Positions 23,777 through 57,706 of a stretch of 64,000 nt of DNA are shown piece by piece. The notes beneath the pieces are model-generated. The model did no database searches and was not told where the DNA came from. It saw nothing but the letters and a program-made list of their open reading frames with translations. The stretch comes from Acidobacteriota bacterium (GTDB lineage Bacteria > Acidobacteriota > Thermoanaerobaculia > Gp7-AA8): positions 209 through 64,208 of the forward strand of contig JAXDJV010000014.1 in NCBI GenBank assembly GCA_034667465.1, given 5' to 3'. Both the position numbers and the translations under genes were made by a program. Numbering within the stretch: the stretch's first letter is position 1; each line of letters opens with the position of its first letter.

Positions 23777-23832
23777 ATTCACACTTTCGTATCGAAAGGT
23801 TGATGGCGTTCCGGCGGTCCTTACGCATATAA

Positions 23833-24933: not shown

Positions 24934-25560
24934 CGAAGCTTCATCTGCTCGGTGTGGCGAAGGTGCGGCGCAGCCTGATGCTTCCGATCATCGTGTTCAC
25001 CGTGCTGAACGCGGCGACCCATGCGCGCGGGTTCGACGGAGAGTGGTGGTGGATGGTGCCGGCGTATGTGCTCTTCGACAGCCTGCTCTGGACCGGTGTC
25101 GCGTTTCTCATTTTCGCCGTGGTCGAGTGGAGGGAGAAACTGCGTCCGCAGCCGCGCTTCGCGGCGATGGTGGTGGCGACGGCCGGCATCGCCACGCTCG
25201 CCGCGGCGATCATCACCGTTCGGGCGCTCTTCGATTCGATCATCCATCAGCAGCCATTCGTGCGGCGGTGGCTCAGGTATCTGCCGGCCGGTTTCTACGG
25301 CGCCGCGTTCTACGTCGCGATCGTCACGGGAATCGCCTACGGGGTTTATTCGTGGGCGGTCGATGACCGGCGTCTCGCCGCGGCGGCGGAGCTCGATGCG
25401 GCGATCGCGAGGGCGGAGCTGAAGGCGGCGTCGGCACGTCTGCAGCCTGAATCACTCGACGCCGCACTGGCACGAATCTCCACGCTCATCGCGACGGACG
25501 TCGCCGGCGCGCAGCGCCTCATCTCGAACCTCGGAGCGCAGTTGCACGATTCACTCGCGG
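24930..25560 (+). pseudogene. 3'-truncated paralog of a LytS-type histidine kinase (TM region plus start of kinase core only)
   Basis: TM helices then ELKAASARLQPESLDAALARISTLI (the same motif as the intact kinase). There is no ATPase domain, and the reading frame runs into the 3' end of lanB on the other strand. Confidence 0.45.
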
Positions 25561-28743: not shown

Positions 28744-29444
28744 GACGCGATCGCTCCACGTTGAGTTTCGATGCGTGGCGGAATGCTGACGACCATCAGC
28801 CGATCCCATGACGGCTCGACGTCGGTAGCCGCGGCGAGCAACGCGAGACCGATGCCGGCGATGCCGGAGAGGAATCCCGGCTCGCCTCTCCACGAACCTT
28901 CTGCGCTCGGAGTCGATTCGTACCAGCTGAGAAATCCTGCGAGGCCTTTGCCGGGCCGGCGCATGTCGAGCGCGATCCGATACCACCGCAGCGCGGCTTC
29001 GCGAAGCTCGTCGTCGCCGGTCGCCTGCCAGATGCGGTTGAAGAGGTGCGCAACGCCGGTTGCTCCGTGACACAGACCGGCGTCGGCGACCATCGTGTCT
29101 TCGACTGAGCGCCGCGCCGCGACGCGCGCGATGCTGATCGCTTCGTCGCGCCATTCGGAGCGGTCGAACGCATGCGCGGCGGAAAGCAGCACCGCGGCGA
29201 CGCCGAGGTCGCCGTAGCACCACGCCGTGCGCGTTGGCCGCGGCGCGGAATCGGGTGGAATGTGCGATGGGAACAGCGAGCCGGGCCAGATGCCTTTCTG
29301 CGCGAGCACCCATTGCACCGCGTCGTTCGCGAGTTGCGCGACGCGCCGATCGCGCACGCCGGCATGCTGCGCGGCGGCGAGAAAACCGATCACGCCCGGG
29401 ATGCCGTGCGCGACGCCGAGGTTGTAGTGGCCGCGCGGCATCAA
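28740..29444 (-). pseudogene. lanC: LanC cyclase, C-terminal half only (GxAHG, WCYG and CHG Zn-ligand motifs present; N-terminal about 200 aa missing)
   Basis: HYNLGVAHGIPGVIGFLA, TAWCYGDLG and AGLCHGATGVAHL. The same frame continues upstream only about 35 codons (...DENGAWFSIPDWLPDWQRELMPRGH) before a stop. ATGA overlap with lanB. Confidence 0.7.
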
Positions 29445-29504
29445 CTCGCGCTGCCAGTCCGGCAGCCAGTCGGGAATCGAGAACCACGCGCCGTTTTCGT
29501 CGCG

Positions 29505-29694
29505 CGAAGAGGCCAGCAGTCCCCGCGGCCGTGAGCAACCGTTGCGCGTCGAGGCCGTGCCGCGAGAGACCGGTCACGCCGCGCACGTCGTCGAGCGAGA
29601 CGTGTCTGCCGTGCAGTGCCAGCGTCATCGCCAGACATGCCGAGCCGCAGTCCGTTGCCGCGGTCTGCGCGACGAAGGGGATGCGTTTAGCCAT
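29505..29694 (-). pseudogene. Fragment of a C39 bacteriocin-processing peptidase domain (first about 65 aa, lacking the His/Asp half)
   Basis: MAKRIPFVAQTAATDCGSACLAMTLALHGRHVSLDDVRGVTGLSRHGLDAQRLLTAAGTAGL matches the Q...CG.A.LAM...G..SL..LR......G.S..G...AA...G pattern of C39 domains. It then runs out of frame into lanC. Confidence 0.45.
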
Positions 29695-30586
29695 GACCGA
29701 GTCCCACCGCGAAGACGAGTGCCAGCAGCAGCGCGGCGACGGTGGCCACCGCGAGCCACGGTGTGCCGCGCGTCCATGCGGCGTTGAGTCGCAGCGGTTC
29801 GGCACCGGCGAGCAGCGGCTGATCGATCTCGCGCAGCGCGTTGTGCCGAAACGGACTGCCCGGCGTTTCGATCAGCCACGTGACAAGGTAGGGACTGGCA
29901 TGCGCGGCAAGTGCTTCGAGCATCGCGACGTCCTTCGGCTCGAACGGCGGATCGTGTTCCGGCCGGAGCGCGATGAGCACCGCGACGATCGCGCCGCGCG
30001 GATCGCTGTCGAGCCGCGTCAGACAGACGGTCATCCCTGTCCGCACGATGAAACTGACGAGGCCGACCGCGGCGCTCGCTTCTTCGCTCGCGTCGCCCGG
30101 ACTCCAGAGCACCTGGTGCTCGCGCTCGAACAACACGCAGCGGCTGCGACGGGTCTCGATGACGCTGCCGATCGCGCGCTCGACCGCATCGGCGACGTCG
30201 GCGACATTCTCCGCCGTCGCCATCCTCCGCAAATCCTCGGCGGGCAGAAACAGCTCGTCCGAACCTTCACGCCCATCGATCGCGCGCGCGCCGTCGATCA
30301 GCGCGTCGAGCTGGCGTTCCGGAAGGTCACCGCATGAGAGATAGAAGAGCCGATCGGCGTCGATGAGCGGCTGAAAGTCCGCGAGCTGGTCACGCGCAGT
30401 GAGAACGATGCTCGTACAGCGCGTGCCCTTCCCGGCGAAGAGGTCGAGTACCGCGATCACATCGCATGCGACGGCCCCGGGACCAAAGACGAGGACAGCG
30501 CGCTCGTGTTCCCGAATCGCGTCGAGCTGCGCGCGATCGATCGACGATTTGATGCGGTAGAGCGGCTGCGCGCTGGCACTCATCAC
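29687..30586 (-). CDS. Hypothetical protein with GAF-like domain and C-terminal TM helix
   Basis: 299 aa. The central VGLVSFIVRTGMTVCLTRLDSDPRGAIVAVLIAL block is GAF-like. C-terminal hydrophobic helix TPWLAVATVAALLLALVFAVGLG. Confidence 0.4.
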   Translation of the reverse strand: MMSASAQPLYRIKSSIDRAQLDAIREHERAVLVFGPGAVACDVIAVLDLFAGKGTRCTSIVLTARDQLADFQPLIDADRLFYLSCGDLPERQLDALIDGARAIDGREGSDELFLPAEDLRRMATAENVADVADAVERAIGSVIETRRSRCVLFEREHQVLWSPGDASEEASAAVGLVSFIVRTGMTVCLTRLDSDPRGAIVAVLIALRPEHDPPFEPKDVAMLEALAAHASPYLVTWLIETPGSPFRHNALREIDQPLLAGAEPLRLNAAWTRGTPWLAVATVAALLLALVFAVGLGHG

Positions 30587-37369: not shown

Positions 37370-37445
37370 GGTAGCGCATACGGGATTTGAACCCGTGTTA
37401 CCGCCGTGAGAGGGCGGCGTCCTGGACCCCTAGACGAATGCGCCG
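37370..37445 (-). tRNA. tRNA-Glu: tRNA-Glu (anticodon CUC), CCA encoded
   Basis: The reverse complement folds as a cloverleaf: GGCGCAT/ATGCGCT acceptor, CCGCC-CTCTCAC-GGCGG anticodon arm and ACGGG-TTCAAAT-CCCGT T-arm. It is close to the E. coli tRNA-Glu sequence apart from the anticodon. Confidence 0.85.
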
Positions 37446-43524: not shown

Positions 43525-46500
43525 TTACCTGAGAGTCATCGATGGATCGCCGAAGAAGATCCACGATTTGCGAACGTCGGGATCGCTCGCAGCCGACTTC
43601 GCGCCGCGCACGGCGTCGCCGAGCGCGACGTGCGGCGCGGCGAAGAGACGGCGGAAGAGCTCGCGATTCATGAGCGCCTGCTGATCGGGCTGCGTCAGCG
43701 ACGACGACGCCCAGACCGCGATCGCGCCGCCATTCTGCGAACCGATCAGCGCTTCGGCGAGACTGCGCGTGTAGATGTCGTGGAAGTAACCGTTCAGGCA
43801 GCTCATCGAAACGACGAACGGCAGACGGGAACCGTTCTGCAGATTGTCGGCGGTGGCGCTGCCGAAAACTCCTTCGCTCCACATTTCAGCCGATGCGTGA
43901 CCGATGTAATCGACGATGAGCGAGCCGCGCATCATCGCGTTGACGAGATCGTCGTACGGCGTCGGCGTGCGCGCGAAGTCGATCGTGCTGCTCGTCATCG
44001 TTGGCGGCAGCAGCGCCGCGAGCGACGTCGTCACTTCAGCGAAGTCGTAGTCGGTCGGATGATCGGCGACGAGCACGGCGTCGTTGCTCCACGTTCCGCT
44101 CGGCGTTCCGCGGCCGGTCAGTTTCGCGAAGTAGCGCGCTGCATCGGCGGCGGTGCGGACCGGCACGCGCCCGACCGCCATCTCGGCGATGCCGTCGTCG
44201 TTGAAGTCGGCGAACCAGTCGTCGGATGCGGTCTTGATCAGCGTCGTCGCGATGAGCTTCGTCGGAACGAAGTCGTACGCGCCGCTGTGCAGGTAGTTGC
44301 GCGGGTCGATGCTGGCGTCACCGACGAGCATCACGTAACGCGGCGCGGTCTTCCACTTCGCCGCGGTCGCGAGGAACGTGCGGATTGCCTTCGGAGAACG
44401 GATGCCGAATCCGAATTCGTCGTAGACGTCTTCAACGTCGACGACGACGGTCGCGGTCCCTTCGCGCTCGCGCACCGGCTGCAGCGTCGAAGCGGCTGCC
44501 ATGAATGCGCTGTTGCTGATGATCACGAGGTCGGCGCCTTTCGCCGCGGAGAGCGTCGACGGGCGATTGGCCGCGAGCTCCGCCGGTGCGAGGACGCGCG
44601 ACGGCTGGAAGACGAGCACGACGCGCGCGCCGCTGCCGGCGGGAGTGAACGTCGCGGCATAACCGCTTCCCTGCGGTGCGACGACCGTTTCGAGCTCGAT
44701 CGGTGCAATGGAGTTGGTCACGTCGAGTGCGCGAACACCTGCGGCCGTGAAGCCGCCGACGGTGACCGCGCGTCCGCCCTGGAGCGTCGCTTCGAGCGCG
44801 CCGTCGTCAGCGCTGAGGAGATGTTGATACGTGAGCCGCGTCGAAGCGCCGACGCTGATGTCGGACCAGCCGCCGAGCGACTGCAGCGTGAGCGTGTTGG
44901 TGCCGGCGGCGAGCCACGATTGCGGGAAGTCGAACGTGAAGGTCTGCTGCTGCTGATCGGCGAACGTCGCCGTGCCGAGGTCGTGGCCGCCGAGCGAGAC
45001 CGCAACGTTGTGCACGGCGGGATGCGTCGTTCCCTGCAGCGTCAGTTCCAGTCGCGCATTGCCGCCGAACGTCGGATCGAGATTGCCGACCGTCAGCGGT
45101 TGCGTCGCCGGGATCGGCATCACGATCGGTCCGAAGAAGTTGTCGCCTTCGCCGTTGTTCGTGATCGCCGCGACGAAGACCGCGCGATCTTTTCGCTCGT
45201 ACGTGAACGCGATGCTGCCGGTCAGCGGATCGCCGCCTTTCGTTTTCGACGTGTCGATCCGTCCGCCGCCTTTGCTCTTCTCGAGTCGCAGCCAGTACGT
45301 GCGCACGCCGGTGGAGATGGCGTCGAGCGGCGTTGCATAGAACTCGATCGCGTCGGTCGCATCGAGCTTGCCGTCGCCACCATCGGAGACGATGAGCGGC
45401 TGTTCGATGCCGCTGGTGTAGAGCGCGAGTCCGCGTGCGTCACTGCCCGGATCGAATCCTGCGGCAGTCATGGTGGCGCGCGTCAGGCGATACCACCCTT
45501 CCTGCGTCGTGTAGATCTTCAATCCTGCATCGGCTGCGAGATCGCTCTGCGTTTTGAATTGTTTGTCGGTGACGTCTTCGGAGTACGTTCGAACGACGCC
45601 GTAACCGGCGGGGGAGGCGACGACGCTGCCGCCGGCTCCGAGGCCGGGAAGCGGCGTCGCGTTCTCCGGCTCATCGACGTAGCCGCTGATCGGCGAGACC
45701 GGACCGTGCATCGTTTTCACGCCGCTGAGGTCGACGTCTTCGAGCCAGTACTGCGCGAAGACGCCGCTGTCGAGTTTGTCCTTCAGGCGATATCCATGAT
45801 CGGACTGACCATCGTGTTTCGCTGCGAGCAGCGCGGTGCCGGCGATCAGCTGTTCGTTGACCTGCGTACGAACGCCGCCGGTTTCGCGATAGATGTTGAA
45901 GCCGAGGTTGTCGGCTTCGAAGCTCGTCTGCCACGAGATCATCACGTTCTTATTCGTTTGCTTCACGCTGAAGTCGCGGAGGCGAACGAGCGTGACGGAG
46001 AGCACGGTCGTCGTCGCGGTCGAGCTGTTGTTGGCGGCAACAGGATCGGTCTTCGTGCCGCTCACCGTCGCGGTATTCGTCAGCGTGCCGGCGACCTGCG
46101 TCTGGACGACGATCGAGATTGTCTCGGTCGCACGAATCGCCATCGTGCCGACGCTGCAGACAATCGTCGTCGTGCCCGCGCAGCTTCCGGCGCTCGGTGA
46201 TGCGCGGATGAAGAAGACGTTGGCCGGCAGCGTGTCGCTGACCGTGACGCCGGTTGCGACTTCCGGTCCGTTGTTCACGACGGTGATGAGATAGGTGACG
46301 AGCTGGCCGGCGCCGACCGGATCGGGCGAATCGGTCTTCGTGATACCGAGATCGGCTTCACCGTTTCCGCGCACGAGCGCGGTGTCGGTGGCGCTGTTGT
46401 TGGCCGCGATCGAATCGACGATGCCGCCGGTCGTGGCGATGTTGCACGTCTGCGAGATCGTCGTGCCGGGCGCGGTGCCGACGATGCTCTGGAAGACCGG

Positions 46501-49500
46501 CGAGAAGGTCGACGTCGTGCCGGTCGTCAGCAACGCGGTCGTGGTGCACGGGATCGCTGTGCCGGCGGCGGCGCCGACCGCGGGAAGCACGCAGGTCCAT
46601 CCTGCCGGAACCGTCATTGAGACGAAGGTCGTGTTCGCCGGAACCGTCTGCGTGAACGAAGCGTTGGTCGACGTGACGCCGTTGTTCGTCACCGTCTCGA
46701 CGAACGTGACGGTCTCGCCGGGGCCGACCGGATCGTTTAGCGCGGTGATGGTCGTGGCGAGATCGGCACTGCCGGCTGCAACGACGGTCGTCGATGCCGA
46801 GGATATGTTGTTGCTCGAGTTGGAATCGGGCGTTGTCGTCGAAACCGTCGCGGTCTCGGTGATGACCGTTGTCGCGACAGTGCCGGCATTCACCTTCACC
46901 ACCATCCCGATGCTCACCGACGCGCCGGCTGCAAGGTTCGCAGCGGAGCAGGTGATCGCACCGGTGCCGCCGGGAGCCGGCGTGATGCAGGTCCAGCCTG
47001 GCTGCGGGGCGATCGAGACGAATGTCGTATTCGGCGGCGTGTTCTCGGTGAACGTCGGATTCACCGCGGTTGCTCCGCCGTAGTTCGTGACTGTCTGCGT
47101 GTAGGCGATGTTGGTGTTTGCGACGACGCGCGCGGGCGCGCTGATGACGACGGCCATGTCCGCGTACGCGGAGGTGACGACGTTGGTCGTGGTCGTGGCG
47201 CTGTTGTTCGCGTAGTTCGAATCAGTGGTCCGACTCGTCGCGTTCGCGGTGTTGCTGATGATGTAGCCGGCTGGTGTGCCTGGATGCGCCTGCATGACCG
47301 CGCTGAAGGTCGCGGTGGCAAGTGATGCGAGCGTTGACGCCGTGCAGGTGATGATTCCCGTTCCGCCCGGAGCGGGCGTGATGCATGTCCAGCCGGCCGG
47401 CGGCGTCATCGAGACGAACGTGGCACTCGCCGGTACCGAGGTCGTGAAGACCGGCTGATCGGCGGCGCTGGGACCGTTGTTCGTCAGCACCTGTGTGTAG
47501 GTGATGTTGGAGCCGGGCGTGACCGGATCGGGCGCGTCGGCGTTCGTCACCGCCAGGTCGGCGACCGCGCAGGAGTATCCGCCTTCGGCGCCCGCTACGA
47601 CGGCGAGCGGCGTCGAGACGATGCCGGCGAGTCCGGGGCCGGAACCGAAGTTGTCCAGATCGGTCGTCGTCAAACCGTTCGTACCGCCGGTGACGTCGGT
47701 GCTCGCGGCGCTGCTGGAAAGATAGATCGCGCCGCCGCCGCCACCGCCGCCCGGGCCGTGACGCTCGCCGGGGAAGTCGCGCGCATTCGGCGGACAGGTG
47801 GGATTCGAGCATGGGCTGGCCTGCGCAAGCCATGCGTTTCCGCCGTTGCCGCCGCGAGCCGTGATCGTGAGCGTGGTCAGCGAGCCGAAACGCGTATCGA
47901 TGACGACCGTGCCGCCGGCGCCGCCGCCGCCGCCCGCGTCGTTGCTGACGTCGAGCGCGTGCGAGCCGTTCGCCGCGATGGTGCCGGTGCCGAGAAGCTC
48001 GTTCGCGCGGATGAGCACGATGCCGCCGCCGGCCTGACCGCTGCTGTTGATGGCGTTGGTGCCGAGGATGACGCTGCCCGCCGCGGTGCCGTTGTTGCTC
48101 GTGCCGGCGCCGCCGCCGCCACCCATCACGAGACGGGTGGTCGTCGGCGCTTCAAAGGTTCCGCCGTAGCCGCCGGTCGCCGACGAGCTGTTCCAGGCGT
48201 TGCCGCCCCCGCCGCCGTCGCCGGCGTTGCCGCCACCGCCGCCGCCGGTGTTCTCATCGTTCGCGACCGGATTGCCGTCCGTGCCGCCGCCGCCCGCGTT
48301 GCCCGGCGCGCCGCGTCCGCTGCTGCCATTCGGATAGCCGTCGATCGTCGTATCGAGCACCGTCGCGGTGTTGTTGAAGAGATAGCGCGGCGTGCCGGCG
48401 ATTCCTTCGCCTTTCGACGCATTCGTTGCCGTCGCGGCGGTCGTTCGATAGTCGGTGTTCGCGCCGGCGCCGCCGGCGAGCTGGCGTCCCGCACCGCCGC
48501 GGAATCCGACGCCGGTGACGCTGAGCTGCGGAACCGTGTAAGCGCGGTTGGTTCCCGTGGTCGTGGCGTTCGTGGTGAGCGTCAGCTGCGTATTGTTGTT
48601 GATGTAGAGAACGGTGCGCGTTCCTTCGCCGGTGATCGTGATCGTGTCGCCGCTGTGCACGACGTTCGTGAACGTCGTGCCGGTGCCGGTGACAGTGGCC
48701 GAACCGTTCGTCGTCGCGACGGTGCCGGCGCCTGCGCCGCTGCCCATCGTCACGGTGCCGGAGACGTCCATCGCGAAGACGCCGCCGATCGAGCCGGTCC
48801 ACGGCAATGCGCGCGTTCCCGCGGCAATCGTTGCACTTGTGTATTGCGGTACGCGAATCACCTGGTAACGGCGCGCGCCCTGCGTGCCCGACGCGGCCGC
48901 GTTCGTGTAGGCGTAGATCAAACCGCCGCCGAGGCCGGCGCCGGTGATGTTGATGGCGCCGGCCCCAGCGACCGCGAGCGCGCTGCGCGACACGACGTAC
49001 TCGTATCGGCCGGCGCTGTTCAGTAGCGACGATCCATTGCCGGCGGTGCCGAGGCTGCCATTGCCGGCCCCGTCGCCATACCGATCGTCGTTGTTCGCGT
49101 CGATCAACGAGTCCTGCATCTGCATGATGAGCAGCAGGTCGCCGACTGCGATCGCGGTCGGTCCTGTTCCCGCGGCCACCGTGACTGAGGTCGCGGCGGC
49201 TGCCGCGTTCGCGCTGCCGGGCCAGTACGTATTCACCGAACCGGTGATCGTGCCGCCGATGCCGTCTTTGCCCGGATTCGAGCAGAGATGCGACTGCGTC
49301 CGGACGACGACCGTGGCGGTGTTGTTTCCCGCGATCGCGTCCGTGGTGCCGACGGTGATCGATGCGGGAACGTTGTAGACGGTAGCCAGTCCGCCGCTCG
49401 CCGCCGTTGCGACGATCGTGACGGTTGCCGAATCGCCGGCGTTCATGAGCGAGCCGATGGCGCACGTCGTCGTTGCCGCCGGCGTACAGGTTCCGAGCGT

Positions 49501-50409
49501 CGTCGTCGCGGAGACGATCGTCAGTCCGGCCGGGAGCGGATTCGAAAAGTTGACGTTGTTGGCGCCGGCGCTTTGCGCCTGGATTTTCCAGGTGAACGTG
49601 ACTTGCGTCGGGGAACCGTCGACGAGATCGGGCGAGGCGTAACCGGTGATCTCGACGTCGGTGCGCGCGCCGCGCAGACTGCCGCCCGCTTTCGCCCAGA
49701 CGCGGTTCGCATTCAGCGTGTACGACATCGTCACGTTCGCGCCGGTCGAAACCTCGGTGCTGGCGACGGCGAGCACGTCGGCGGTGGTGAGCGGCGCCGG
49801 CGACGTCGTGTTGTACATCGAGGTCTGGCCCGCGCCGACCGCCGCGGTCAGCGTGCCGTTGTGACGTGCGGAGGTGTAGTCGACGACGAGATCACCGGCC
49901 GCCGTTCCCGCCAGCGTCGAGGTCGGAGTGTTGTTGTTTCCACCGGCCGTGTAGCCGAGTGATCCGGTGAGCGCCTGATCGACGTCGACGAACGTCGTGA
50001 CGCCGACCAGCGACGGTACGGTTTGTCCTGCGGCGACGTTCTGCGCCGTGACGACGACGTTGTTCGTGCCGGTCGACGGCGCGAGGAGATACCACAGCTC
50101 GATACGAACGTCGTTGGCGCCCTCGGTGAGCGCCTCTGCGAGAAACATCGCCGCGCCGTTGTATGTGACCGACGCGATCGTGGTCGCCGTGCTCGTGGTC
50201 ACGTTCATATGAACGGCGACGATCATCAGCCGGTTCGCGCGCACAGGTGTCGTGTGCGCGACGGTCATCGTCAGCGCCGCGGGAGCGAAGGTGCCCTGAG
50301 AAGTCGTCGTGCCGTTCAGCGCCAGCTGCGCATCGGCGCGATGCGGCTGCAGAAACAGCAGCCCCAGGAAGAACGTTGCGATTGCGACGACACGATTTCG
50401 ATTGCTCAT
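43525..50409 (-). CDS. Giant (2294 aa) secreted surface protein with DUF11-type repeats and a C-terminal peptidase C25 (gingipain-like) domain
   Basis: Signal peptide. Multiple repeats of about 100 aa (...VTNNGPSAADQPVFT..., VTNYGGATA..., VTNNGVTST...). The C-terminus has GHASAEMW (His) and VVSMSCLNGYF (Cys), as in the C25 catalytic dyad. Confidence 0.7.
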   Translation of the reverse strand: MSNRNRVVAIATFFLGLLFLQPHRADAQLALNGTTTSQGTFAPAALTMTVAHTTPVRANRLMIVAVHMNVTTSTATTIASVTYNGAAMFLAEALTEGANDVRIELWYLLAPSTGTNNVVVTAQNVAAGQTVPSLVGVTTFVDVDQALTGSLGYTAGGNNNTPTSTLAGTAAGDLVVDYTSARHNGTLTAAVGAGQTSMYNTTSPAPLTTADVLAVASTEVSTGANVTMSYTLNANRVWAKAGGSLRGARTDVEITGYASPDLVDGSPTQVTFTWKIQAQSAGANNVNFSNPLPAGLTIVSATTTLGTCTPAATTTCAIGSLMNAGDSATVTIVATAASGGLATVYNVPASITVGTTDAIAGNNTATVVVRTQSHLCSNPGKDGIGGTITGSVNTYWPGSANAAAAATSVTVAAGTGPTAIAVGDLLLIMQMQDSLIDANNDDRYGDGAGNGSLGTAGNGSSLLNSAGRYEYVVSRSALAVAGAGAINITGAGLGGGLIYAYTNAAASGTQGARRYQVIRVPQYTSATIAAGTRALPWTGSIGGVFAMDVSGTVTMGSGAGAGTVATTNGSATVTGTGTTFTNVVHSGDTITITGEGTRTVLYINNNTQLTLTTNATTTGTNRAYTVPQLSVTGVGFRGGAGRQLAGGAGANTDYRTTAATATNASKGEGIAGTPRYLFNNTATVLDTTIDGYPNGSSGRGAPGNAGGGGTDGNPVANDENTGGGGGGNAGDGGGGGNAWNSSSATGGYGGTFEAPTTTRLVMGGGGGAGTSNNGTAAGSVILGTNAINSSGQAGGGIVLIRANELLGTGTIAANGSHALDVSNDAGGGGGAGGTVVIDTRFGSLTTLTITARGGNGGNAWLAQASPCSNPTCPPNARDFPGERHGPGGGGGGGAIYLSSSAASTDVTGGTNGLTTTDLDNFGSGPGLAGIVSTPLAVVAGAEGGYSCAVADLAVTNADAPDPVTPGSNITYTQVLTNNGPSAADQPVFTTSVPASATFVSMTPPAGWTCITPAPGGTGIITCTASTLASLATATFSAVMQAHPGTPAGYIISNTANATSRTTDSNYANNSATTTTNVVTSAYADMAVVISAPARVVANTNIAYTQTVTNYGGATAVNPTFTENTPPNTTFVSIAPQPGWTCITPAPGGTGAITCSAANLAAGASVSIGMVVKVNAGTVATTVITETATVSTTTPDSNSSNNISSASTTVVAAGSADLATTITALNDPVGPGETVTFVETVTNNGVTSTNASFTQTVPANTTFVSMTVPAGWTCVLPAVGAAAGTAIPCTTTALLTTGTTSTFSPVFQSIVGTAPGTTISQTCNIATTGGIVDSIAANNSATDTALVRGNGEADLGITKTDSPDPVGAGQLVTYLITVVNNGPEVATGVTVSDTLPANVFFIRASPSAGSCAGTTTIVCSVGTMAIRATETISIVVQTQVAGTLTNTATVSGTKTDPVAANNSSTATTTVLSVTLVRLRDFSVKQTNKNVMISWQTSFEADNLGFNIYRETGGVRTQVNEQLIAGTALLAAKHDGQSDHGYRLKDKLDSGVFAQYWLEDVDLSGVKTMHGPVSPISGYVDEPENATPLPGLGAGGSVVASPAGYGVVRTYSEDVTDKQFKTQSDLAADAGLKIYTTQEGWYRLTRATMTAAGFDPGSDARGLALYTSGIEQPLIVSDGGDGKLDATDAIEFYATPLDAISTGVRTYWLRLEKSKGGGRIDTSKTKGGDPLTGSIAFTYERKDRAVFVAAITNNGEGDNFFGPIVMPIPATQPLTVGNLDPTFGGNARLELTLQGTTHPAVHNVAVSLGGHDLGTATFADQQQQTFTFDFPQSWLAAGTNTLTLQSLGGWSDISVGASTRLTYQHLLSADDGALEATLQGGRAVTVGGFTAAGVRALDVTNSIAPIELETVVAPQGSGYAATFTPAGSGARVVLVFQPSRVLAPAELAANRPSTLSAAKGADLVIISNSAFMAAASTLQPVREREGTATVVVDVEDVYDEFGFGIRSPKAIRTFLATAAKWKTAPRYVMLVGDASIDPRNYLHSGAYDFVPTKLIATTLIKTASDDWFADFNDDGIAEMAVGRVPVRTAADAARYFAKLTGRGTPSGTWSNDAVLVADHPTDYDFAEVTTSLAALLPPTMTSSTIDFARTPTPYDDLVNAMMRGSLIVDYIGHASAEMWSEGVFGSATADNLQNGSRLPFVVSMSCLNGYFHDIYTRSLAEALIGSQNGGAIAVWASSSLTQPDQQALMNRELFRRLFAAPHVALGDAVRGAKSAASDPDVRKSWIFFGDPSMTLR

Positions 50410-50427
50410 GATTGCCCCGTAGTCATT

Positions 50428-50901
50428 TCAGACGGAAAGCGCGCGAACCTGCGCGGTCTCCGGAATTCCATTCGATGTGGCACGGCCGAAACGCCGCTGA
50501 AGCGAGTGACGTACACGCCGCAACACGGCGAGGGCCTGCTGTGTGAGAGCGCCGCGCGAATCGACGGCGGCGCAACGGCCGTCGCGCTCGACGCCGGAGA
50601 TCCGGCCGAGAACGGCGCTGCCGGCGACGATGGCGTCGGCGGTAAGTGAGTTGTCGCCGCGCGTGCGAACGCGCAGCTCGCCGCGCGTCGCGTCGAGCTC
50701 GATGATTCGATGCGCGGTCAGGCCGCGCGGCGCGGCGGTGAGCACGACGTCGCCGACGCGCAGCGATTCTTCATCGCAGCGCGTGACGTGCACGAATTCG
50801 CCGCTGCGAATCGTCGGAATCATGCTGTGTCCCGACGCGCAGAACCGCGCGTCGTAGCCCGCGGCCAGCACGTCCTGCAGCGTGTTGACGAACATCGTCA
50901 T
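50428..50901 (-). CDS. S24/S26-family (LexA/signal-peptidase-like) Ser peptidase, candidate leader peptidase
   Basis: ASGHSMIPTIRSGEFVHV...GDVVL resembles the GxSMxPT nucleophile motif. 157 aa. Translationally coupled (ATGA) to the HprK-like gene. Confidence 0.55.
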   Translation of the reverse strand: MTMFVNTLQDVLAAGYDARFCASGHSMIPTIRSGEFVHVTRCDEESLRVGDVVLTAAPRGLTAHRIIELDATRGELRVRTRGDNSLTADAIVAGSAVLGRISGVERDGRCAAVDSRGALTQQALAVLRRVRHSLQRRFGRATSNGIPETAQVRALSV

Positions 50902-51805
50902 CCGTTCCTCCGCACCACCTCGACGACGCTGTCGTCGGGTGTGAAGCGCAGCAGCCTGACCGGCACGCGCGCGCAGATGTCCGCCAGAAACTCGATCGTG
51001 AATGCGAGTGCGGCGGGGTCATAGAAAGGGGGAAAGGTGCAGCCGAACAACATTGCCGACGCGGTTGCCGGCGCGAGCGACTCGAGCTCGGTGAGGGGTG
51101 CCTGGCGCAGGATGTAAACGCCGGCCAGCGGCGCGGTCGACGCCGACGATAGCTCCGCTTCGCCGTGCCATGGCGTGCCGAACATCCGCAGCACGCCGTC
51201 CACGTCGCGCACAATCACGCGATCGTCGCTGACGATGTCGATGCCTGCTTCGCGCAGCCACACTTTGCCGGTGGTGGTCTTGCCGGCGCCCGACTGGCCG
51301 ACGAACAGATGGCCGCGGCCGTCGCGATCGATGACGCCGCATCCGTGCAGCTCGACGCCGCGTCCGCGGCCGAGGAGATTCGCGACGAGCACTTCATCGA
51401 GCGGATAGTCGAGCGGATGCATCGTCGGAAGATCGGCATCGGCGCTCAGCAGAATGCGTCCCGACGTGAAGCTCGAATTCAGCAGCGCCACTTTGTACGG
51501 CGCGTCGCCGAACATCGCCGAATGACACTCGATCCGATAGCCGTCGCCGTCCGCGTAAAGACGCCAGACGCCGCCCGATTCGAAGAGCAGCTCACCGCGC
51601 GGATGGAGGTCGCGTTCGTCGAGGCGATCGACCGTCAGCGTCAAATCGGCGTCAGCGAGCGGTGAAACTTCGAAGCGGCCGGTGGTCGCGGAAAGTCCGC
51701 GGCCGAGCGACTGATCGGCGTAGTGCAACGCGATGCCGAGCCCTCCGATCGTGAGAAAGGAGGAGCTGATCACAACCGCGTGCTCGCCGGAGACGCTCAT
51801 GACCC
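50898..51805 (-). CDS. HPr kinase-related (HprK C-terminal-domain-like) peptide kinase
   Basis: Real start at MSVSGEHAVV. P-loop region LHGCGVIDRDGRGHLFVGQSGAGKTTTG is characteristic of HprK-related kinases in RiPP clusters. The ATG overlaps the stop of the precursor gene. Confidence 0.8.
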
Positions 51806-51975
51806 GGCGGTCTGACAGGGGCCGGTCACGAAGCAGTTGCCGCCGCTGGCGCCCGCCGCCGATGCCGACTTGCAGAAGCCGAGCACCGCTTCTTCGGGAC
51901 GCAGCGGAAAGCGCCGCACTTCGGGCTTCTCGTACGGTTTCTTCTCTTCGGTATGACCTTCGTTCTGCATGCTGA
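51802..51975 (-). CDS. 57-aa RiPP precursor peptide (not in ORF track): MQNEGHTEEKKPYEKPEVRRFPLRPEEAVLGFCKSASAAGASGGNCFVTGPCQTAGS
   Basis: Strong RBS (AAGAGGA 6 nt upstream). It lies between the rSAM/SPASM gene (7 nt upstream) and the HprK-like gene (ATGA overlap). Charged leader, then a Gly/Ala/Ser-rich core with 3 Cys and a C-terminal Ser. Confidence 0.6.
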
Positions 51976-51981
51976 TCCTCT

Positions 51982-53244
51982 TTATCGGCCGGCCCCGGCC
52001 GAGCAGTTGTCACAGCCTCCCGAACCGCAGGAGGAGACGAGTGGACGTGGTTGCGCCGCGGCGATGGCGGCGATTCGTTCGGCGCCGCCGTTCCGCAGCG
52101 CGGCGGCGGTGCCCCGCAGTCGCGAAACGTCGTCGCACATCGTGCAGTGGCCGTGCGGCCGCACCGGAATGTCGAACGTGATGGCGCGCAGATGCGCGAC
52201 TTCACAAAGGAAATCGACCGGCGTTTCGGGATCGCCGTTCTCCAGCTCTCCGTTGGCGGGACACATTCCGCACATCGACTTCAGCGAGCACGTCGTGCAT
52301 TTGCCGGGACGCGATTGCGGCCGCTGGCGCACGCCGCGGAGGAAGTGATTCCAGCCATCGCTCACCGAGCCGTCGCGGACGTTGTAGCGATCGACGTGCG
52401 AGAGCACGCAGATCGACATGTCGCCGTATGGATCGATGGCGAACGAGTTCACGCCGCCGCCGCAGTCATAGAGCTGCGGCGTCTGACCTTCCGGCACCGG
52501 CATCGGCTGGAACTTCGCGACCAGCTCCTGCCACGCGACGATTCGCTCCGGATCGTCGAGATCGAGCGACACGATTTCTTCCGGCGTCAGCCGGACCGCG
52601 AGCGGACTCGAAGAGCAGTCGATGCGCGGATTGATCATCGCGTCGAACTTGAATTCGACACCGAGGTTCTCCGCCATCGCGGCCATCGCGCCGATCTCGT
52701 GTTTGTTGATCGAGACCGCGACCGTTTTGAGTTTCAGCGGCAGTCCGCGCTCCAGCAGCAGCGCGATGCCGCGCATGCAGAGGTCGTACGATCCCGCGAT
52801 TCCGGTCAGTCCTTCGTACGTCTCGCGTGTCGCGCCGTAGAGCGTGATCTCGATCGAGAACGGCGGCCACTTCACCAGCTCATCGGCAATCGCCTCGGTG
52901 ACCATCGTGCCGTTCGTGAACAGCGTGACGAGCAGACCGCGGCGGATGGCGTGGCGATAGATGTCGAGGAAGTCGCGGCGCGCGAAGATCTCGCCGCCGG
53001 TGTAGAGGAGCCAGAGACAACCGAGATCGGCCAGCTCGTCGATGATGCGGTGATGCTCGGCGGTGGTCAGCTCGCGTGCGCGAGCAACGCCGTCGTGCAT
53101 CGGCAGGTTGTTGTAGCAATGCGCACAATCGAGCGGGCAACGGTTGGTGATCTCGACGGTGCCGTTGACCGGTACACGCGTCGCGTTCACCTCGCGGTGA
53201 ATGAACGCACTAAACTCGGCGTAGCTCCCGCTCTCGATACTCAT
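51982..53244 (-). CDS. Radical SAM enzyme with SPASM domain (peptide-modifying maturase)
   Basis: CPLDCAHCYN (CX3CX2C), SPASM cysteines (YDCGGG...SICVLSH..., CTTCSLKSMCGMC) and a Cys-rich tail (SSCGSGGCDNCS). Confidence 0.85.
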   Translation of the reverse strand: MSIESGSYAEFSAFIHREVNATRVPVNGTVEITNRCPLDCAHCYNNLPMHDGVARARELTTAEHHRIIDELADLGCLWLLYTGGEIFARRDFLDIYRHAIRRGLLVTLFTNGTMVTEAIADELVKWPPFSIEITLYGATRETYEGLTGIAGSYDLCMRGIALLLERGLPLKLKTVAVSINKHEIGAMAAMAENLGVEFKFDAMINPRIDCSSSPLAVRLTPEEIVSLDLDDPERIVAWQELVAKFQPMPVPEGQTPQLYDCGGGVNSFAIDPYGDMSICVLSHVDRYNVRDGSVSDGWNHFLRGVRQRPQSRPGKCTTCSLKSMCGMCPANGELENGDPETPVDFLCEVAHLRAITFDIPVRPHGHCTMCDDVSRLRGTAAALRNGGAERIAAIAAAQPRPLVSSCGSGGCDNCSAGAGR

Positions 53245-53302
53245 AAATTGTCGATGGACCCTTTTGGACCAAAGGGTGTCGGGAAAAGATTATTGCACCG
53301 TA

Positions 53303-53619
53303 TGATGAAACGAACGATGACAACCCATCAGGAAAGCGTGATTTACGCGAAATCGGACAATCTCGTGATGCGGTCGGTCGGGGGCGAAACCATCCTCGTC
53401 CCGGTGCGCAGCAACGTCGGCGATCTCGATTCGGTCTTCACCCTGAACGCAGTCGCGGCTCGAATCTGGACGCTGCTCGACGGAAAGCGCAGCGTCGATG
53501 AGGTGATCGACGAGCTCTCCAGCGAGTACGACGCGGCGCCGGACGTCATCCGCGCCGATGCCGTCGAACTGCTGGCCGCGCTCGAAGAGGGAAAGCTCGT
53601 CAGCCGCGTACGCGCGTGA
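53303..53619 (+). CDS. PqqD-family RiPP recognition element (peptide chaperone)
   Basis: About 105 aa. VMRSVGGETILVPVRSNVGDLDSVFTLNAVAARIWTLLDGKRSVDEVIDELSSEYDA is the PqqD/RRE signature. Only the last third of the 52051-53619 ORF is real. Confidence 0.75.
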
Positions 53620-54681
53620 AGAGCTTTGCGACCGCACCGAGCGCGCGACGGAGGTAGAGGAACGGCAGCGCGACGTTGCTCGCTCCCGGAAATCGAGCGC
53701 GCATCTGTTCGGCTGACGGAAACGCGAGCAGCCGCAGGAATCGCAAGCGTTTGCCTTTCGCGGCGCGCAACTCTGCGATCAGTTCGCTGATGTGAAGCCG
53801 TTGCGGATCGAGGAAGCTCTCCGATTGCTCGCGATGCGATGTCCGTTCGAACGCCGGCGCTTCATCGGACGCGAACCATTCGAACGCGCGCGAAAGACCG
53901 TCGGCGCAGATGGCGACGATCTCTCCTTCGACCGCTCGCTGACGGAAGAGCCGTCGTTCGTCGGGAGTGAGCGCGCGCCAAAGCAGCACGAGGTCGTAAA
54001 GCCAGATCAGCCGATCGTCGCCGTGATGATGTGCGACGCGATGGACGCACGCGATGAGCAGCGAGTCGACAGTGGCCGGGATGCGCAGGCCGGACGCGGT
54101 CGTCGTTCCGTTCGCGCGGAGCGCGTCGACGTCGAAGAGCCGCGCCAGTTCGCGCGCGTTGCTGATCGCCCAGTGCAGATCGAGGACGTCGCCGGCGTGC
54201 GAGCCGCGAAGCATCACCTGCGCCGACGGCGCATTGCGCGGCGACATCTCGGCGACGTACCCGAGCGCGCGCAGCGCGTCGACGGCACGCTCCGCTTCGG
54301 ACGGCGCGACGATCAGGTCGACGTCGGCACGCGGCCGCAGTCCGCGCGATGGATAGATCGACTCGGCGAGCGCCGTCCCTTTGATGAAGAGCGGCGTGAT
54401 CTCGTGTGCACGCAGCGCTTCGACGACCTCGGTCATCCGCACGATGCCGCGCTCAGCAAGCATCGCGTTTCCGAACGCGTCGCGGCGCAGCGCGTCGACG
54501 AGCTCGCGCGGCCAGTCGCCGTGCACCAGCGTGAAGAGGAGCGGCTGCAGTCCGTGCTCGCGCGTGGCGCGCAGGAGAGGCGCGAGATCGGCCGGCGGCG
54601 CGGCGTCGCGTCCGGCGAAGAGGTCGCGCAGCCAGCGCCGCTCATCTGCCGTGACCTCAATCAGCGAAGCGTCTTCACGCA
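53600..54681 (-). CDS. Uncharacterised nucleotidyltransferase-family protein (PF14907-like), start uncertain (possible TTG)
   Basis: About 357 aa of credible sequence (...LQPLLFTLVHGDW...PLFIKGTALAESIYPSRGLRPRADVDLIV...). The family co-occurs with HprK-like kinases in RiPP clusters. The upstream 400 codons of the ORF-track version are antisense to the TonB-dependent receptor gene. Confidence 0.55.
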
Positions 54682-54712
54682 AGTTCGCACCTGACCGTCT
54701 AACATTCTGATC

Positions 54713-57706
54713 ATGCTCGCACGCGTCGCGCTCGTCTTCGCTCTTCTCATCATCATCGCCTCGTCCGCCGTCGCGCAAACGACCGCGGCGCTGACCGGCG
54801 TCGTGACCGGTCGCAAGGGGCCGCGCGCCGGCGTGACGGTGACGATCACTTCGCCGTCGCTGCAGGGAACGCGCAGCACCATGACTGGCGAGAACGGCGC
54901 CTACAGCTTCGCCGCGCTGCCGCCGGGCGAGTACGTCGTGACGTTCGAGCAGCCCGGCGTGACGACCGCGACGCGCAACGTCACGCTGCGTCTCTCGCAA
55001 CTCGCGCGTGCAGACGCATCGCTGCTCGAGCCGTACATCTTCGACGGCGACCTGATCGTGACCGCGCCGCGGCCTTCGGTGCTCGAGACGCCGACCGTCT
55101 CGACGAACCTGACGCTCGCGCAGATCGAGCGTCTGCCGATTCAGCGCAATCAGCTCGCCACCGCGCAGTTCGCGCCGGGCGTCACCGCGAACGTGCTGTC
55201 GAACGGCCAGCTGCAGATTTCCGGCGGCCCCGGTTACGACAACCTCGTGCTCGTGAACGGCGTCACCGTCACCGAGAACACGCGCGGGCAGATGCGGCCG
55301 CTGTACGTCGAAGACGGGATTCAGGAGACGACGCTGCTGACCGGCGCGATCTCCGCCGAGTACGGACGTTTCAGCGGCGGCGTCGTAAGCACGATCACGA
55401 AATCGGGCGGCAACGAGCTGACCGCATCGCTGCGCGACTCGCTGTCGAATCCGAGCTGGTCGGCGCAGACGCCGGCGCTCGAAGCGCGCGAATCGTCGCT
55501 GAGTCACGTATGGGAAGCGACGCTCGGCGGGCGGCTGCTTCGCGACCGGCTCTGGTTCTTCACCGCCGGACGCTGGGCGAAAAATGACACCGCGCGGCAA
55601 ACGGTGGCGGTGCCGCCGTTCGCGAATCCGGCGTCCGCGGCCGGCACGCCGATCAGCTACACGGAAGGGAACGATCAGAAGCGCTACGAAGTGAAGCTGA
55701 CCGGACAGCTCGCCGCGAATCACAGCCTCGCCGCCTCGTATTTCGGGATCAACACGAAAGGGACGAATGTCCGCTTCAACGCGAACCTTTACGACACGGC
55801 GAGTCTGACGACGCGCGAGGATCCGGAATCGCTCGTAGCCGTTCATTACGAGGGGTTGCTGCGGACGAATTTTCTGGCAGAGGGACACTACTCGTCGCGA
55901 AAGTTCGCCGATCGCACCGGCTCATTTGCAACCGACATCGTCGGCGGGACGCTGCTGCTCGATCGCTCCAACAACAACACGCGCTTCAATGCGCCAACGC
56001 TTTGCGGCGTTTGCGACGTCGAACGCCGCGATAACGACGACATCCTGCTGAAGGCGCATCAGTTCCTGGAAGCGGGACGTTTCGGGACGCACGATATCGT
56101 CGGCGGCGTCGATCGTTTCACCGAGCAGCGTTACGCGAACAATCATCAGTCGGGGAGCGACTTCTCACTGTTCGTGAGCCGCCTGCAAACGAAAAATGGC
56201 GTGCTTTATCCGGTTGTCACACCGACGACCGCAACGGGCGGCGGCTCATTCATCCGCTGGACTCCGGTACTGACCGCCGCGCGCGAGGACGAGCTGCGCA
56301 CCGACTCCGCGTTCGTGAACGACGTCTGGTCGATCGGCGGGCGGTGGCAGGTTTCGCTCGGCGCGCGTCTCGATCGCAATCACGCCGCCGATGCGGACGG
56401 TGTCGTCAGTTCCGACGATCGCCGGCTGGCGCCGCGCGTCGCAGTGCAGTTCGACATCTCCGGTAACGGACGCAATCGGATCAATGCGTCGTTTGCCGAA
56501 TATTCGTCGCGCATTGCCGACAGTATTGCAGCGTCGAATCAGGCGGCCGGTAATGCCGCATCAATCGATTTCATTTATCGCGGTCCCGCGTTCAACGACA
56601 AGGATCTCAACACGCCGCTGGCCGATGTGATCCGCAGCGTCTTCGCATATTTCAATACGACGCAGGGCGGTACCGATAATCGCGCCGCGAACAATTTGCG
56701 CGCGAACGGTACGCGCACTGTACCGGGTTACTCGACGTATTTCGACGGCACGCTGGCGTCGCCGTATGTGCGCGAGCTGACGCTCGGTTACGGGATGCAA
56801 CTCGGCCGCGATGCGTATGTTCGCGCCGATCTGATCAGCCGCGACTGGCGCGATTTCTACGTCGCCAGCGTTACGCAGTCGACGCAGCGGCTCAATACGC
56901 CGCTCGGAATTCCGATCGATCTGACGCTCATTCGCAATAGCAATAATGTCGAGCGCACATACCGCGGCGTACAAATGCAGGCGCGCTGGACGCCGTCGCC
57001 TTTCGACGCCGGCATCCATTACACGTGGTCGAAATTGCGCGGCAACGACGAAGGGGAAACAGCGACGAACGGTGCGGCGACGAATATCGATCGGACGCTG
57101 TACTATCCTGAGTTCTTCGCTTACGAACGCGCTACGCCGATCGGTTACCTGCCGGGCGATCAGCGTCATCGTCTCCGCGCGTGGGCCGGCTACACGTTGC
57201 GCAGCGTCTCATTGTCGCTATTGCACAGTTTCGATTCGGGCCTGCCGTACTCGATTTCCGGCCCGATCAATTTGACGCGTTATACAGGCGCGCCGGTAAA
57301 TCCCGGCTACAACTCGATTCCGAACGGCATCTATTACTTCAGCGATCGCGGCGCCTTGCGCACCGACAATATTCATTCGACCGATCTCGCGTTGCGTTAC
57401 AGCTTCCGCGTCGGCGCGGCGGAGCTTTTCGCACAGGGCGATCTGCTCAACATCTTCAACAATGACGGCATCGCCGATCCGCAGCGCCTTGGGCTCACCG
57501 TCAGCACCGCTGCGACGTCGGCGACCTTTGCGCCGTTCGACCCGCGCACGCAAACGCCCATCGAATGCCCGCGCGGAGTTGCCGCCGCTGCGTGCACTGC
57601 GATGGGCGCGAATTACCAGCTCGCCGCGAATTTCGGTCAGCCGCTCAATGACCTCGCGTATCAAAGGCCGCGGACATACCGATTCTCGTTCGGAGCGCGT
57701 TTCTGA
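54713..57706 (+). CDS. TonB-dependent outer-membrane receptor with N-terminal carboxypeptidase-regulatory-like domain
   Basis: Signal peptide, CarbopepD_reg-like segment (LTGVVTGRKGPRAGVTVTITS...TGENGAYSFAALPPGEYVV), plug and beta-barrel. It ends in ...FSFGARF (C-terminal Phe). Confidence 0.75.
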   Translation: MLARVALVFALLIIIASSAVAQTTAALTGVVTGRKGPRAGVTVTITSPSLQGTRSTMTGENGAYSFAALPPGEYVVTFEQPGVTTATRNVTLRLSQLARADASLLEPYIFDGDLIVTAPRPSVLETPTVSTNLTLAQIERLPIQRNQLATAQFAPGVTANVLSNGQLQISGGPGYDNLVLVNGVTVTENTRGQMRPLYVEDGIQETTLLTGAISAEYGRFSGGVVSTITKSGGNELTASLRDSLSNPSWSAQTPALEARESSLSHVWEATLGGRLLRDRLWFFTAGRWAKNDTARQTVAVPPFANPASAAGTPISYTEGNDQKRYEVKLTGQLAANHSLAASYFGINTKGTNVRFNANLYDTASLTTREDPESLVAVHYEGLLRTNFLAEGHYSSRKFADRTGSFATDIVGGTLLLDRSNNNTRFNAPTLCGVCDVERRDNDDILLKAHQFLEAGRFGTHDIVGGVDRFTEQRYANNHQSGSDFSLFVSRLQTKNGVLYPVVTPTTATGGGSFIRWTPVLTAAREDELRTDSAFVNDVWSIGGRWQVSLGARLDRNHAADADGVVSSDDRRLAPRVAVQFDISGNGRNRINASFAEYSSRIADSIAASNQAAGNAASIDFIYRGPAFNDKDLNTPLADVIRSVFAYFNTTQGGTDNRAANNLRANGTRTVPGYSTYFDGTLASPYVRELTLGYGMQLGRDAYVRADLISRDWRDFYVASVTQSTQRLNTPLGIPIDLTLIRNSNNVERTYRGVQMQARWTPSPFDAGIHYTWSKLRGNDEGETATNGAATNIDRTLYYPEFFAYERATPIGYLPGDQRHRLRAWAGYTLRSVSLSLLHSFDSGLPYSISGPINLTRYTGAPVNPGYNSIPNGIYYFSDRGALRTDNIHSTDLALRYSFRVGAAELFAQGDLLNIFNNDGIADPQRLGLTVSTAATSATFAPFDPRTQTPIECPRGVAAAACTAMGANYQLAANFGQPLNDLAYQRPRTYRFSFGARF

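Follow-up and report, generated by a model that had tools for sequence, protein, structure and literature searches.

We describe an operon of an Acidobacteriota bacterium (GCA_034667465.1, contig JAXDJV010000014.1) which is an uncharacterised system of the type that makes peptides built by the ribosome and modified after translation (RiPPs), with a chemistry that we propose from sequence comparison. All coordinates are those of the whole stretch of 64,000 nt that was analysed, called here the window. The gene cluster is real and widespread in soil Acidobacteriota, which are among the most abundant soil bacteria and mostly uncultured, and its most likely product is a modified small peptide. We hold with high confidence that a RiPP-type pathway acts on the 57-aa peptide encoded in the operon. 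The core of the system consists of five genes, those of a PqqD-family protein, a radical S-adenosylmethionine (rSAM)/SPASM enzyme, the peptide, a kinase and a peptidase. The features of the locus are as follows:

51982-53244, minus strand: gene of the putative rSAM/SPASM maturase, 420 aa
51797-51970, minus strand: open reading frame (ORF) of the precursor peptide, 57 aa
50898-51800, minus strand: gene of the ScmC-type HprK-like P-loop protein, a predicted kinase, 300 aa
50428-50901, minus strand: gene of a predicted soluble Sec11/SipW-type (S26B) serine peptidase, 157 aa
53305-53619, plus strand: gene of the PqqD-family protein (RiPP recognition element, RRE), 104 aa, inverted in this clade
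53600-54682, minus strand: gene of a PF14907 protein of nucleotidyltransferase fold, 360 aa, a candidate accessory tailoring enzyme
43525-50409, minus strand: gene of the giant DUF11/C25 secreted protein, 2294 aa
53592-53627, no strand assigned: palindrome of 18+18 nt, 83% complementary, without spacer (repeat search)

A conserved operon and its precursor peptide

Read from positions 50380-54760 and from the list of ORFs, the minus strand carries in series the rSAM/SPASM gene, the 57-aa ORF, the gene of the HprK-like P-loop protein and that of the small peptidase. The 57-aa ORF starts 11 nt past the rSAM stop codon, with the Shine-Dalgarno sequence AAAGAGGA before its ATG, and its TGA forms an ATGA overlap with the ATG of the kinase gene; the same overlap joins the TGA of the kinase gene to the ATG of the peptidase gene. 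On the other side, the PqqD gene is divergent from the rSAM gene, with ~55 nt between them, and convergent with the PF14907 gene, with an overlap of 20 nt; TTG is probably the start codon of the latter. These coordinates and overlaps agree with the layout given in the initial annotation of this DNA (rSAM, 57-aa peptide, kinase and peptidase in line, PqqD divergent and PF14907 convergent), which did not mention the giant DUF11/C25 gene at 43525-50409. The ATG of that gene lies 18 nt past the stop codon of the peptidase gene and it is probably the last gene of the operon.

One genome per species was scanned with an alignment of the kinase, and at least 595 genomes contained a relative; the kinase profile gathered 1310 clusters at 50% identity (E ≤1e-30). 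Eighty loci, in which the identity of the kinase goes from 93% down to 40%, were kept for comparison. Throughout these loci the order PqqD, rSAM, peptide, kinase and peptidase is essentially fixed: rSAM and PqqD genes are both present in 56 of the 58 loci with enough upstream sequence, a small ORF lies between the rSAM and kinase genes in 76 of the 78 loci where this junction is covered, and the peptidase gene occurs in 67 of 73. The small ORF is lacking at two of these junctions, in L021, where the kinase is an orphan, and in L024, which is degenerate. Such an arrangement, with the same five genes including the small ORF recurring in 80 genome loci, is far beyond chance.

The 57-aa precursor consists of the leader MQNEGHTEEKKPYEKPEVRRFPLRPEEAVLG and of a predicted core of 26 aa, FCKSASAAGASGGNCFVTGPCQTAGS. 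The motifs YxKPxV and LRPEEAVLG lie in the leader; the predicted core has xCK, three Cys and, at its C-terminus, Gly-Ser. The LRPEEAVLG block is identical in 44 distinct DNA versions, all their differences being synonymous: 9 of 9 third codon positions vary, no second position does, and the three variable first positions correspond to synonymous changes of Leu and Arg. This purely synonymous variation shows that the small ORF codes for a protein on which purifying selection acts, and the initial annotation was right to take it for a real gene, conserved as it is in the syntenic loci. Its description as newly found did not hold, as a protein search matched the peptide to 189 database clusters, all "hypothetical", of which those with a name come from metagenome-assembled genomes (MAGs) of Acidobacteriota or Thermoanaerobaculia. 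No Pfam or NCBIfam family matches the peptide.

The consensus of this family (family 1) is [KR][KR]xYxKPx4[FV]xL[RK]PEEAVLG-xCK[ST]...GP...C...C-x3-G-S. The sequence after EAVLG was taken as the core, and 180 distinct cores were compared. Exactly three Cys are present in 178 of the cores, the third of them always 5 residues from the C-terminus (178/178), and the last residue is Ser in 177 cores and Thr in the other 3; a three-Cys peptide with a C-terminal Ser next to these enzymes is what the initial annotation had proposed to look for. Lys at core position 3 is invariant, GP is conserved and the terminal Gly-Ser is near-invariant. The composition is dominated by Gly and Ser (39% together), with a median of 7 Ser and Thr per core, very little Asp (0.4%) and no Glu. 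With its near-invariant leader and its variable core of fixed Cys, Lys and terminal Ser, the peptide carries the usual signature of a RiPP precursor, and it is encoded, as such precursors are, by a short gene adjoining modifying enzymes. Residues Y13-x-x-P16-x-V18 of the leader are conserved and match the lasso motif YxxPxL, known as the RRE-binding motif of lasso leaders (PMC10368454).

A second, paralogous family was found in L057 (17109-20169), where the genes stand in another order than in family 1 (peptide, S26B peptidase, ScmC-like kinase, PqqD protein and rSAM/SPASM enzyme), the kinase being 31% identical to that of the window. Among 238 metagenome relatives of this family 2, 80 loci were kept (L089-L168) and the gene order is conserved in them. 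The peptides follow the pattern KKPYEKPxFRYEQVFVTSALSCGK...C...S; all 52 distinct ones end in Ser and 51 have two Cys, with a varying spacing from the last Cys to the C-terminus. At least 9 family-2 loci have a PF14907 gene after the rSAM gene, and in others this place is taken by a family-1 glycosyltransferase or an M48 peptidase. Upstream of the family-2 operon there is often a conserved ORF of ~750 aa, whose match to a beta-propeller is weak. Taking these two divergent families together, 232 of 232 distinct peptides terminate in Ser or Thr, and this last position holds the only hydroxyl residue conserved across both, which strengthens the case for phosphorylation of the C-terminal Ser.

The radical SAM enzyme, its PqqD partner and the proposed pathway

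The following scenario would account for the gene set. The leader (KKxYxKPxV...LRPEEAVLG) would be bound by the PqqD-family protein, which would hand the peptide to the rSAM/SPASM enzyme; the latter, with two auxiliary Fe-S clusters, may cross-link the three invariant Cys of the Gly/Ser-rich core of 26 residues, Cys-to-carbon thioethers of the sactipeptide or ranthipeptide kind being the likeliest bonds. The HprK-like kinase would phosphorylate the side chain of the invariant C-terminal Ser, as its distant relatives do on lasso precursors, and the PF14907 enzyme, where it is present as in the window, may decorate this phosphate, by analogy with the hexose on pseudomycoidin. Finally, the soluble Sec11-type Ser/His/Asp peptidase would cut the leader off in the cytoplasm, probably after AVLG, with Val at -3 and Gly at -1. 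Taken as a whole (cross-linking, Ser phosphorylation, decoration and leader removal), this mechanism seems to us somewhat more probable than its negation. The initial annotation had already read the locus as one of peptide modification by an rSAM enzyme and a kinase; the gene set, the intact motifs and the conservation of the peptide support that interpretation, with a chemistry that is still conjectural.

The rSAM enzyme matches Pfam Radical_SAM with 5e-18 and SPASM weakly, and its motifs (CX3CX2C and a full seven-Cys SPASM) are consistent with two auxiliary clusters. In 68 sequences, C36/40/43 and C261/279/316/319/325/328/347 are 100% conserved. The protein continues past the SPASM region with an extension HxHCxxC ... 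Cx4Cx2C (residues 364-414, window 51982-52150), which may be an additional metal or Fe-S site; C367 and C370 of this tail are again 100% conserved and C406/411/414 are 88-96% conserved. Its 52 NCBIfam matches are all far below the curated cut-offs, the best of them (AhbD, MftC, NirJ2 and PqqE) each reaching less than 45%, and it falls in none of the named maturase families tested (AlbA, SkfB, PapB, MftC, PqqE, ScmE/F, GeoRSP and others). The sole full-length NCBIfam alignment is with MftC (108.7 bits, residues 24-328), and the closest relatives in the PDB are PqqE (5e-16) and SkfB (7e-8).

The initial annotation proposed to judge its interpretation by the conservation of the small ORF, the presence of a P-loop in the kinase and the grouping of the rSAM enzyme with peptide maturases or with cofactor enzymes. 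On this last point no cofactor equivalog is reached at threshold, and a PqqD gene and a precursor gene adjoin the enzyme; this is the least clean of the three tests because MftC and PqqE themselves modify peptides. An alternative which we consider distinctly unlikely is that the C-terminal Cys-x3-Gly-Ser segment is the source of a small molecule or cofactor similar to pyrroloquinoline quinone (PQQ) or mycofactocin: the rSAM enzyme, helped by its PqqD chaperone, would modify this strictly spaced segment and the peptidase would free a small fragment, which would then be phosphorylated and turned by the PF14907 enzyme into a nucleotide- or sugar-linked metabolite. The MftC alignment, the rank of PqqE in the PDB, the fixed position of the third Cys and the near-invariant Gly-Ser, which resembles the GVY of MftA, would fit this proposal, and so would the lack of a conserved exporter and a distribution that looks vertical, with one copy of the operon per locus. 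But every rSAM match is far below its family cut-off, no partner oxidoreductases are conserved nearby, and conservation extends beyond the C-terminus to three Cys over 20 residues, the invariant Lys and GP; moreover, the last Cys of family-2 peptides stands at varying distances from the C-terminus, and the link to the giant surface protein would be left unexplained. A modified peptide is for us the better reading of the product.

The PqqD-family protein matches Pfam PqqD with 1e-17 and has weak NCBIfam matches to the PQQ, ScmD, GeoRSP and lasso PqqD chaperones, with 30 bits against lasso_PqqD_Bac for a cut-off of 80. Its gene lies directly upstream of the rSAM gene and co-directional with it in 56 of the 58 loci with enough upstream sequence. 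It is inverted relative to the rSAM operon in the window's clade only, and co-directional in the 80 other loci. A misassembly was rejected as the cause, since two independent metagenome contigs (L086 3606-3920 and L088 185-502) repeat the inverted arrangement. The repeat search found no inverted repeats flanking the PqqD gene that could explain the inversion. It did return the palindrome of 18+18 nt, which sits exactly where the stop regions of the convergent PqqD and PF14907 genes overlap by 20 nt; this palindrome may have been left as a scar by the inversion or may serve as a bidirectional terminator. A promoter/terminator scan gave nothing exceeding shuffled expectation, and an Rfam scan of the window found no riboswitch, its single match being a distant tRNA (37372-37444, minus strand).

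Peptidase, giant secreted protein and putative tailoring enzymes

The small peptidase matches Pfam Peptidase_S24 at 2.7e-4, below the cut-off, and just misses the threshold of TIGR02228, archaeal-type signal peptidase I, with 49.5 bits for a cut-off of 51.85. Its family profile aligned the SM-P, HR and GDN motifs with those of human SEC11C (1e-9) and SEC11A (1e-8) in the PDB, while LexA and bacterial signal peptidases gave only ~1e-3. Ser26, His64-Arg65 and Gly82-Asp83 are invariant (32-73 sequences), there is no conserved Lys, and no membrane anchor was detected in the protein, whose maximum 19-residue hydropathy is 1.31. As hydrophobic segments are lacking and the Sec11 catalytic motifs align, we assign the protein to the soluble enzymes of Sec11/SipW type (S26B) with a predicted Ser/His/Asp site, and not to those of LexA-type S24; of the S24/S26-like label in the initial annotation, the S26 half was thus retained and the S24 half dropped. 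The residues that precede the first Cys, an invariant A-V-L-G, agree with the -3/-1 rule of this class, and the enzyme would remove the leader after them.

In other genomes the peptidase is fused to the kinase, to the PF14907 enzyme and to the giant protein. One fusion joins kinase, peptidase and the Invasin domain of a surface protein. Six loci carry an in-frame fusion between the peptidase domain and the signal anchor at the N-terminus of the giant protein (L057 10819-14610, L064 10822-16068, L071 3125-7126, L079 10674-16007, L082 10518-18566 and L083 10272-17774). This places the peptidase of these fusions on the cytoplasmic side.

The giant protein itself combines a signal peptide with five DUF11 repeats and, at its C-terminus, a peptidase domain of the C25 (gingipain) type, with Pfam scores of 2e-71 for Peptidase_C25 and 8e-66 for DUF11. 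A homologue is encoded directly downstream of the operon in 34 of 59 family-1 loci, including those of distant lineages (Bryobacterales, Pyrinomonadaceae, Blastocatellia and betaproteobacterial MAGs); it is missing from the other 25 and from nearly all family-2 loci, which keep the peptidase. Large plus-strand ORFs found downstream in loci without the giant protein mostly have no Pfam match and are probably shadow ORFs. The link between the operon and this surface protein is real, and the product of the operon would be functionally tied to it. One way of stating the link would make the operon, instead of a stand-alone antibiotic cluster, the cytoplasmic half of a two-part system: its cross-linked and phosphorylated or phosphoglycosylated peptide would be passed on to the giant protein of gingipain/PorU type, become attached to it or control it; we find this unlikely. 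Were it true, the recurrent fusions of peptidase and anchor would mark a membrane-proximal step of maturation and hand-off, for which no precedent is known among RiPPs.

The whole module could also serve the giant protein, with the peptidase as its dedicated processing enzyme, as SipW is for TasA, and the modified peptide as a partner of the protease (inhibitor, chaperone or attached group). The distance of 18 nt between the two genes, the downstream position kept in distant lineages, the six in-frame fusions with the one to a surface protein, and the fact that S26B peptidases are otherwise signal peptidases all speak for this. Yet the peptidase has no membrane segment and lies on the cytoplasmic side of the anchor in the fusions, so that signal peptides at the outer face are out of its reach; it is retained in the many loci of both families which lack the giant protein, and it is fused to the kinase and to PF14907 as well. 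This makes a dedicated processing role quite improbable, and removal of the peptide's leader remains the function that we favour for the peptidase.

In the kinase, the P-loop GQSGAGK[T/S]T and the motif SDDRV are invariant across 81 homologues and were aligned with the HprK structures 1jb1 and 1ko7, so the HprK-like character given to it by the initial annotation is confirmed at the P-loop. An AlphaFold2 (AF2) model has the PEPCK/HprK fold, the whole protein being nearer to PEPCK than to HprK alone. Precomputed matches to PF27840 "ScmC" exist for 119 of 120 listed homologues, with scores that belong to these homologues and not to the window protein. The kinase has no HprK_rel_A (HprK-related kinase A) match, and a kinase of a lasso cluster can be aligned with it over no more than 62 residues, at 45% identity. 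Homologues of HPr kinase are known to phosphorylate lasso precursors at the C-terminal Ser and to depend little on the remaining peptide (PMC8498205), and phosphorylation of the precursor's C-terminal Ser is the function that we predict here. One orphan homologue (L021 9818-10870), with no rSAM, peptide or peptidase gene nearby, sits after a pair of ECF sigma and anti-sigma factors.

The P-loop protein might instead activate Ser/Thr for elimination, giving dehydroalanine for the addition of Cys, or act as an ATP-dependent scaffold of the rSAM enzyme: the core is rich in Ser/Thr and has three Cys, class III/IV lanthipeptide synthetases provide a precedent for phosphorylation followed by elimination, the overall fold leans to PEPCK, and we know of no assayed function for ScmC-family proteins; but no lyase or cyclase is conserved in the operon, the C-terminal hydroxyl residue is the only one conserved in both families and the closest characterised relatives are C-terminal Ser kinases, so that we give this role little credence.

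The PF14907 protein matches Pfam NTP_transf_5 with 3e-32, and we take PsmN of the pseudomycoidin cluster to be a member of the same family. Its motif KG...DxD is conserved in 29 sequences (K101-G102 and D120-x-D122), the DxD corresponding to aspartates needed for the activity of PsmN, a nucleotidyltransferase-like enzyme which adds a hexose to a peptide phosphate and needs D134/D136 (PMC6993621). The gene lies at most 10 kb away in 25 of the 46 family-1 loci with enough flank, and is thus accessory and not a core gene. One Blastocatellia MAG (L084) has a fusion of peptidase and PF14907; its counterpart in lasso clusters likewise forms, at times, a single protein with the leader protease (PMC8498205). 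The gene and its Pfam match stand as initially annotated; in place of the possible nucleotidylylation of the peptide envisaged there, glycosylation of the phosphate is favoured by analogy.

Several points weigh against the pathway of cross-linking and Ser phosphorylation. With AhbD, MftC and NirJ2 as the best profile matches of the rSAM enzyme, and every named family far below its cut-off, the reaction cannot be assigned from sequence, and the three Cys could instead bind a metal or form disulfides. The target of the kinase is deduced only from the conservation of the last residue and from distant homology, and the site of cleavage is guessed by applying the -3/-1 rule. In the 80 related loci, no transporter or exporter is conserved with the operon. 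Finally, the distribution looks vertical and near-syntenic within Thermoanaerobaculia, for which reason a physiological role fits at least as well as that of an antibiotic.

Other neighbours were considered and set aside. An AI-2E transporter, an SDR protein and glutaredoxin/pterin-4a genes accompany the operon in Thermoanaerobaculia and were rejected, being absent from the window and from distant loci. The window contains a second RiPP locus, of lanthipeptide type, at 6240-14153 and 25519-29805 (both on the minus strand), with the following genes:

6240-7121: sulfotransferase
7049-8053: LanC-like protein
7911-10748: ABC transporter
10751-12913: C39-peptidase ABC exporter
12903-14153: HlyD-type fusion protein
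LanB-type dehydratase, 1428 aa, with an N-terminal C39 fragment

The C39 exporter at 10751-12913 was rejected as exporter of the 57-aa peptide, as it belongs to this separate locus ~37 kb away, AVLG is without the usual small residue at -2, and the related loci do not have this gene in their conserved neighbour clusters. The window also encodes a LytTR response regulator and a histidine kinase (22694-24933).

Comparison with known systems

A literature search found no paper on this system, which the RRE-Finder paper does not mention, in keeping with the view of the initial annotation that the combination of enzymes had not been characterised. No NCBIfam model claims any of its proteins, and apart from Pfam ScmC for the homologues of the kinase these belong to no curated functional family.

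The phosphorylated or phosphoglycosylated lasso peptides (paeninodin with PadeK, pseudomycoidin with PsmK/PsmN, and Bradymonas BsfK) have the HprK-like P-loop kinase in common with it. They also share the PqqD-family RRE, a precursor ending in Ser with the leader motif YxxPx(L/V), and an optional PF14907-type enzyme, sometimes fused to the leader peptidase in both cases. The maturase at the core of the present system is however an rSAM/SPASM enzyme, the leader peptidase is predicted to be of Sec11 type, and the kinase belongs to the ScmC branch and not to HprK-related kinase A. Pfam scans of 36 window ORFs gave no lasso cyclase (Asn-synthetase-like), nor is there one in the conserved core of the 80 loci, a cyclase fragment in L030 serving as positive control, and the same scans of the window ORFs gave no B2 transglutaminase-like leader protease, as the initial annotation had stated for both. 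The fragment in question (L030 1-1850) is part of a lasso cluster, with the C-terminus of a cyclase, a 49-aa precursor, a HprK-related-A-like kinase and a lasso PqqD, and in this Thermoanaerobaculia MAG 2-3 kb separate it from the rSAM operon; the leader of its precursor, KPYRRPTLTRY, resembles KPYEKPEVRRF of the rSAM system.

The nearest described entity is the SynChlorMet (SCM) cassette, bioinformatically defined (ScmC/D/E/F; TIGR04248-04251) and not mentioned in the initial annotation, which also combines a HprK-like protein, a PqqD homologue and a PqqE-like rSAM/SPASM. None of its cut-offs is reached (ScmC 27.8 vs 125, ScmD 32.1 vs 100, ScmE 77.9 vs 400, ScmF 63.8 vs 400) and the two sets of genes are not alike: the present system has a single rSAM enzyme instead of two (ScmE and ScmF), and a defined precursor, a Sec11-type peptidase, a PF14907 enzyme and a giant C25 protein are present. 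To our knowledge, no precursor has been identified for the SCM cassette.

With sactipeptides and ranthipeptides (AlbA, SkfB, SCIFF/CteB, PapB) the system shares an rSAM/SPASM enzyme with two auxiliary clusters, a core bearing Cys and a leader dependent on an RRE. It differs from them by an RRE which is a separate PqqD protein and by a kinase and an S26B peptidase which are foreign to those classes; the scores of the rSAM enzyme against AlbA, StsB, PapB and SkfB are 44-80 bits for cut-offs of 340-850. PQQ and mycofactocin (PqqA/D/E; MftA/B/C/E/F) likewise have a small precursor whose C-terminus is conserved, together with a PqqD-type chaperone and an rSAM/SPASM enzyme, followed by a peptidase and a later decorating transferase, but scores are well below cut-offs, there are no homologues of PqqB/C or MftD, the core is based on Cys and a kinase is added. 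Finally, the peptidase has the catalytic SM-P, HR and GD(N) motifs in common with SipW, Sec11 and archaeal type I signal peptidases (S26B), and the large secreted protein adjoining it recalls tapA-sipW-tasA, whereas it lacks a transmembrane anchor, is predicted to be cytoplasmic and is encoded inside a peptide-modification operon.

If the proposed chemistry is true, this constitutes a new RiPP family and the first function for the ScmC proteins. The link to the giant C25 protein gives a hint that the role is one other than antibiosis, in the cell envelope or in surface proteolysis. The system is not conceptually unprecedented; its unusual features are the Sec11-like enzyme as putative leader peptidase, an rSAM scaffold with C-terminal tailoring apparently of the lasso type, and the connection with a C25 surface protein. 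It would join two toolkits which are known separately, rSAM/SPASM cross-linking and the tailoring of a C-terminal Ser by a lasso-type kinase and PF14907 enzyme, with a soluble Sec11-like enzyme added as the probable leader peptidase. By its sequences it resembles a hybrid between a sactipeptide or ranthipeptide pathway and the tailoring branch of the phosphorylated lasso peptides, and is a member of neither.

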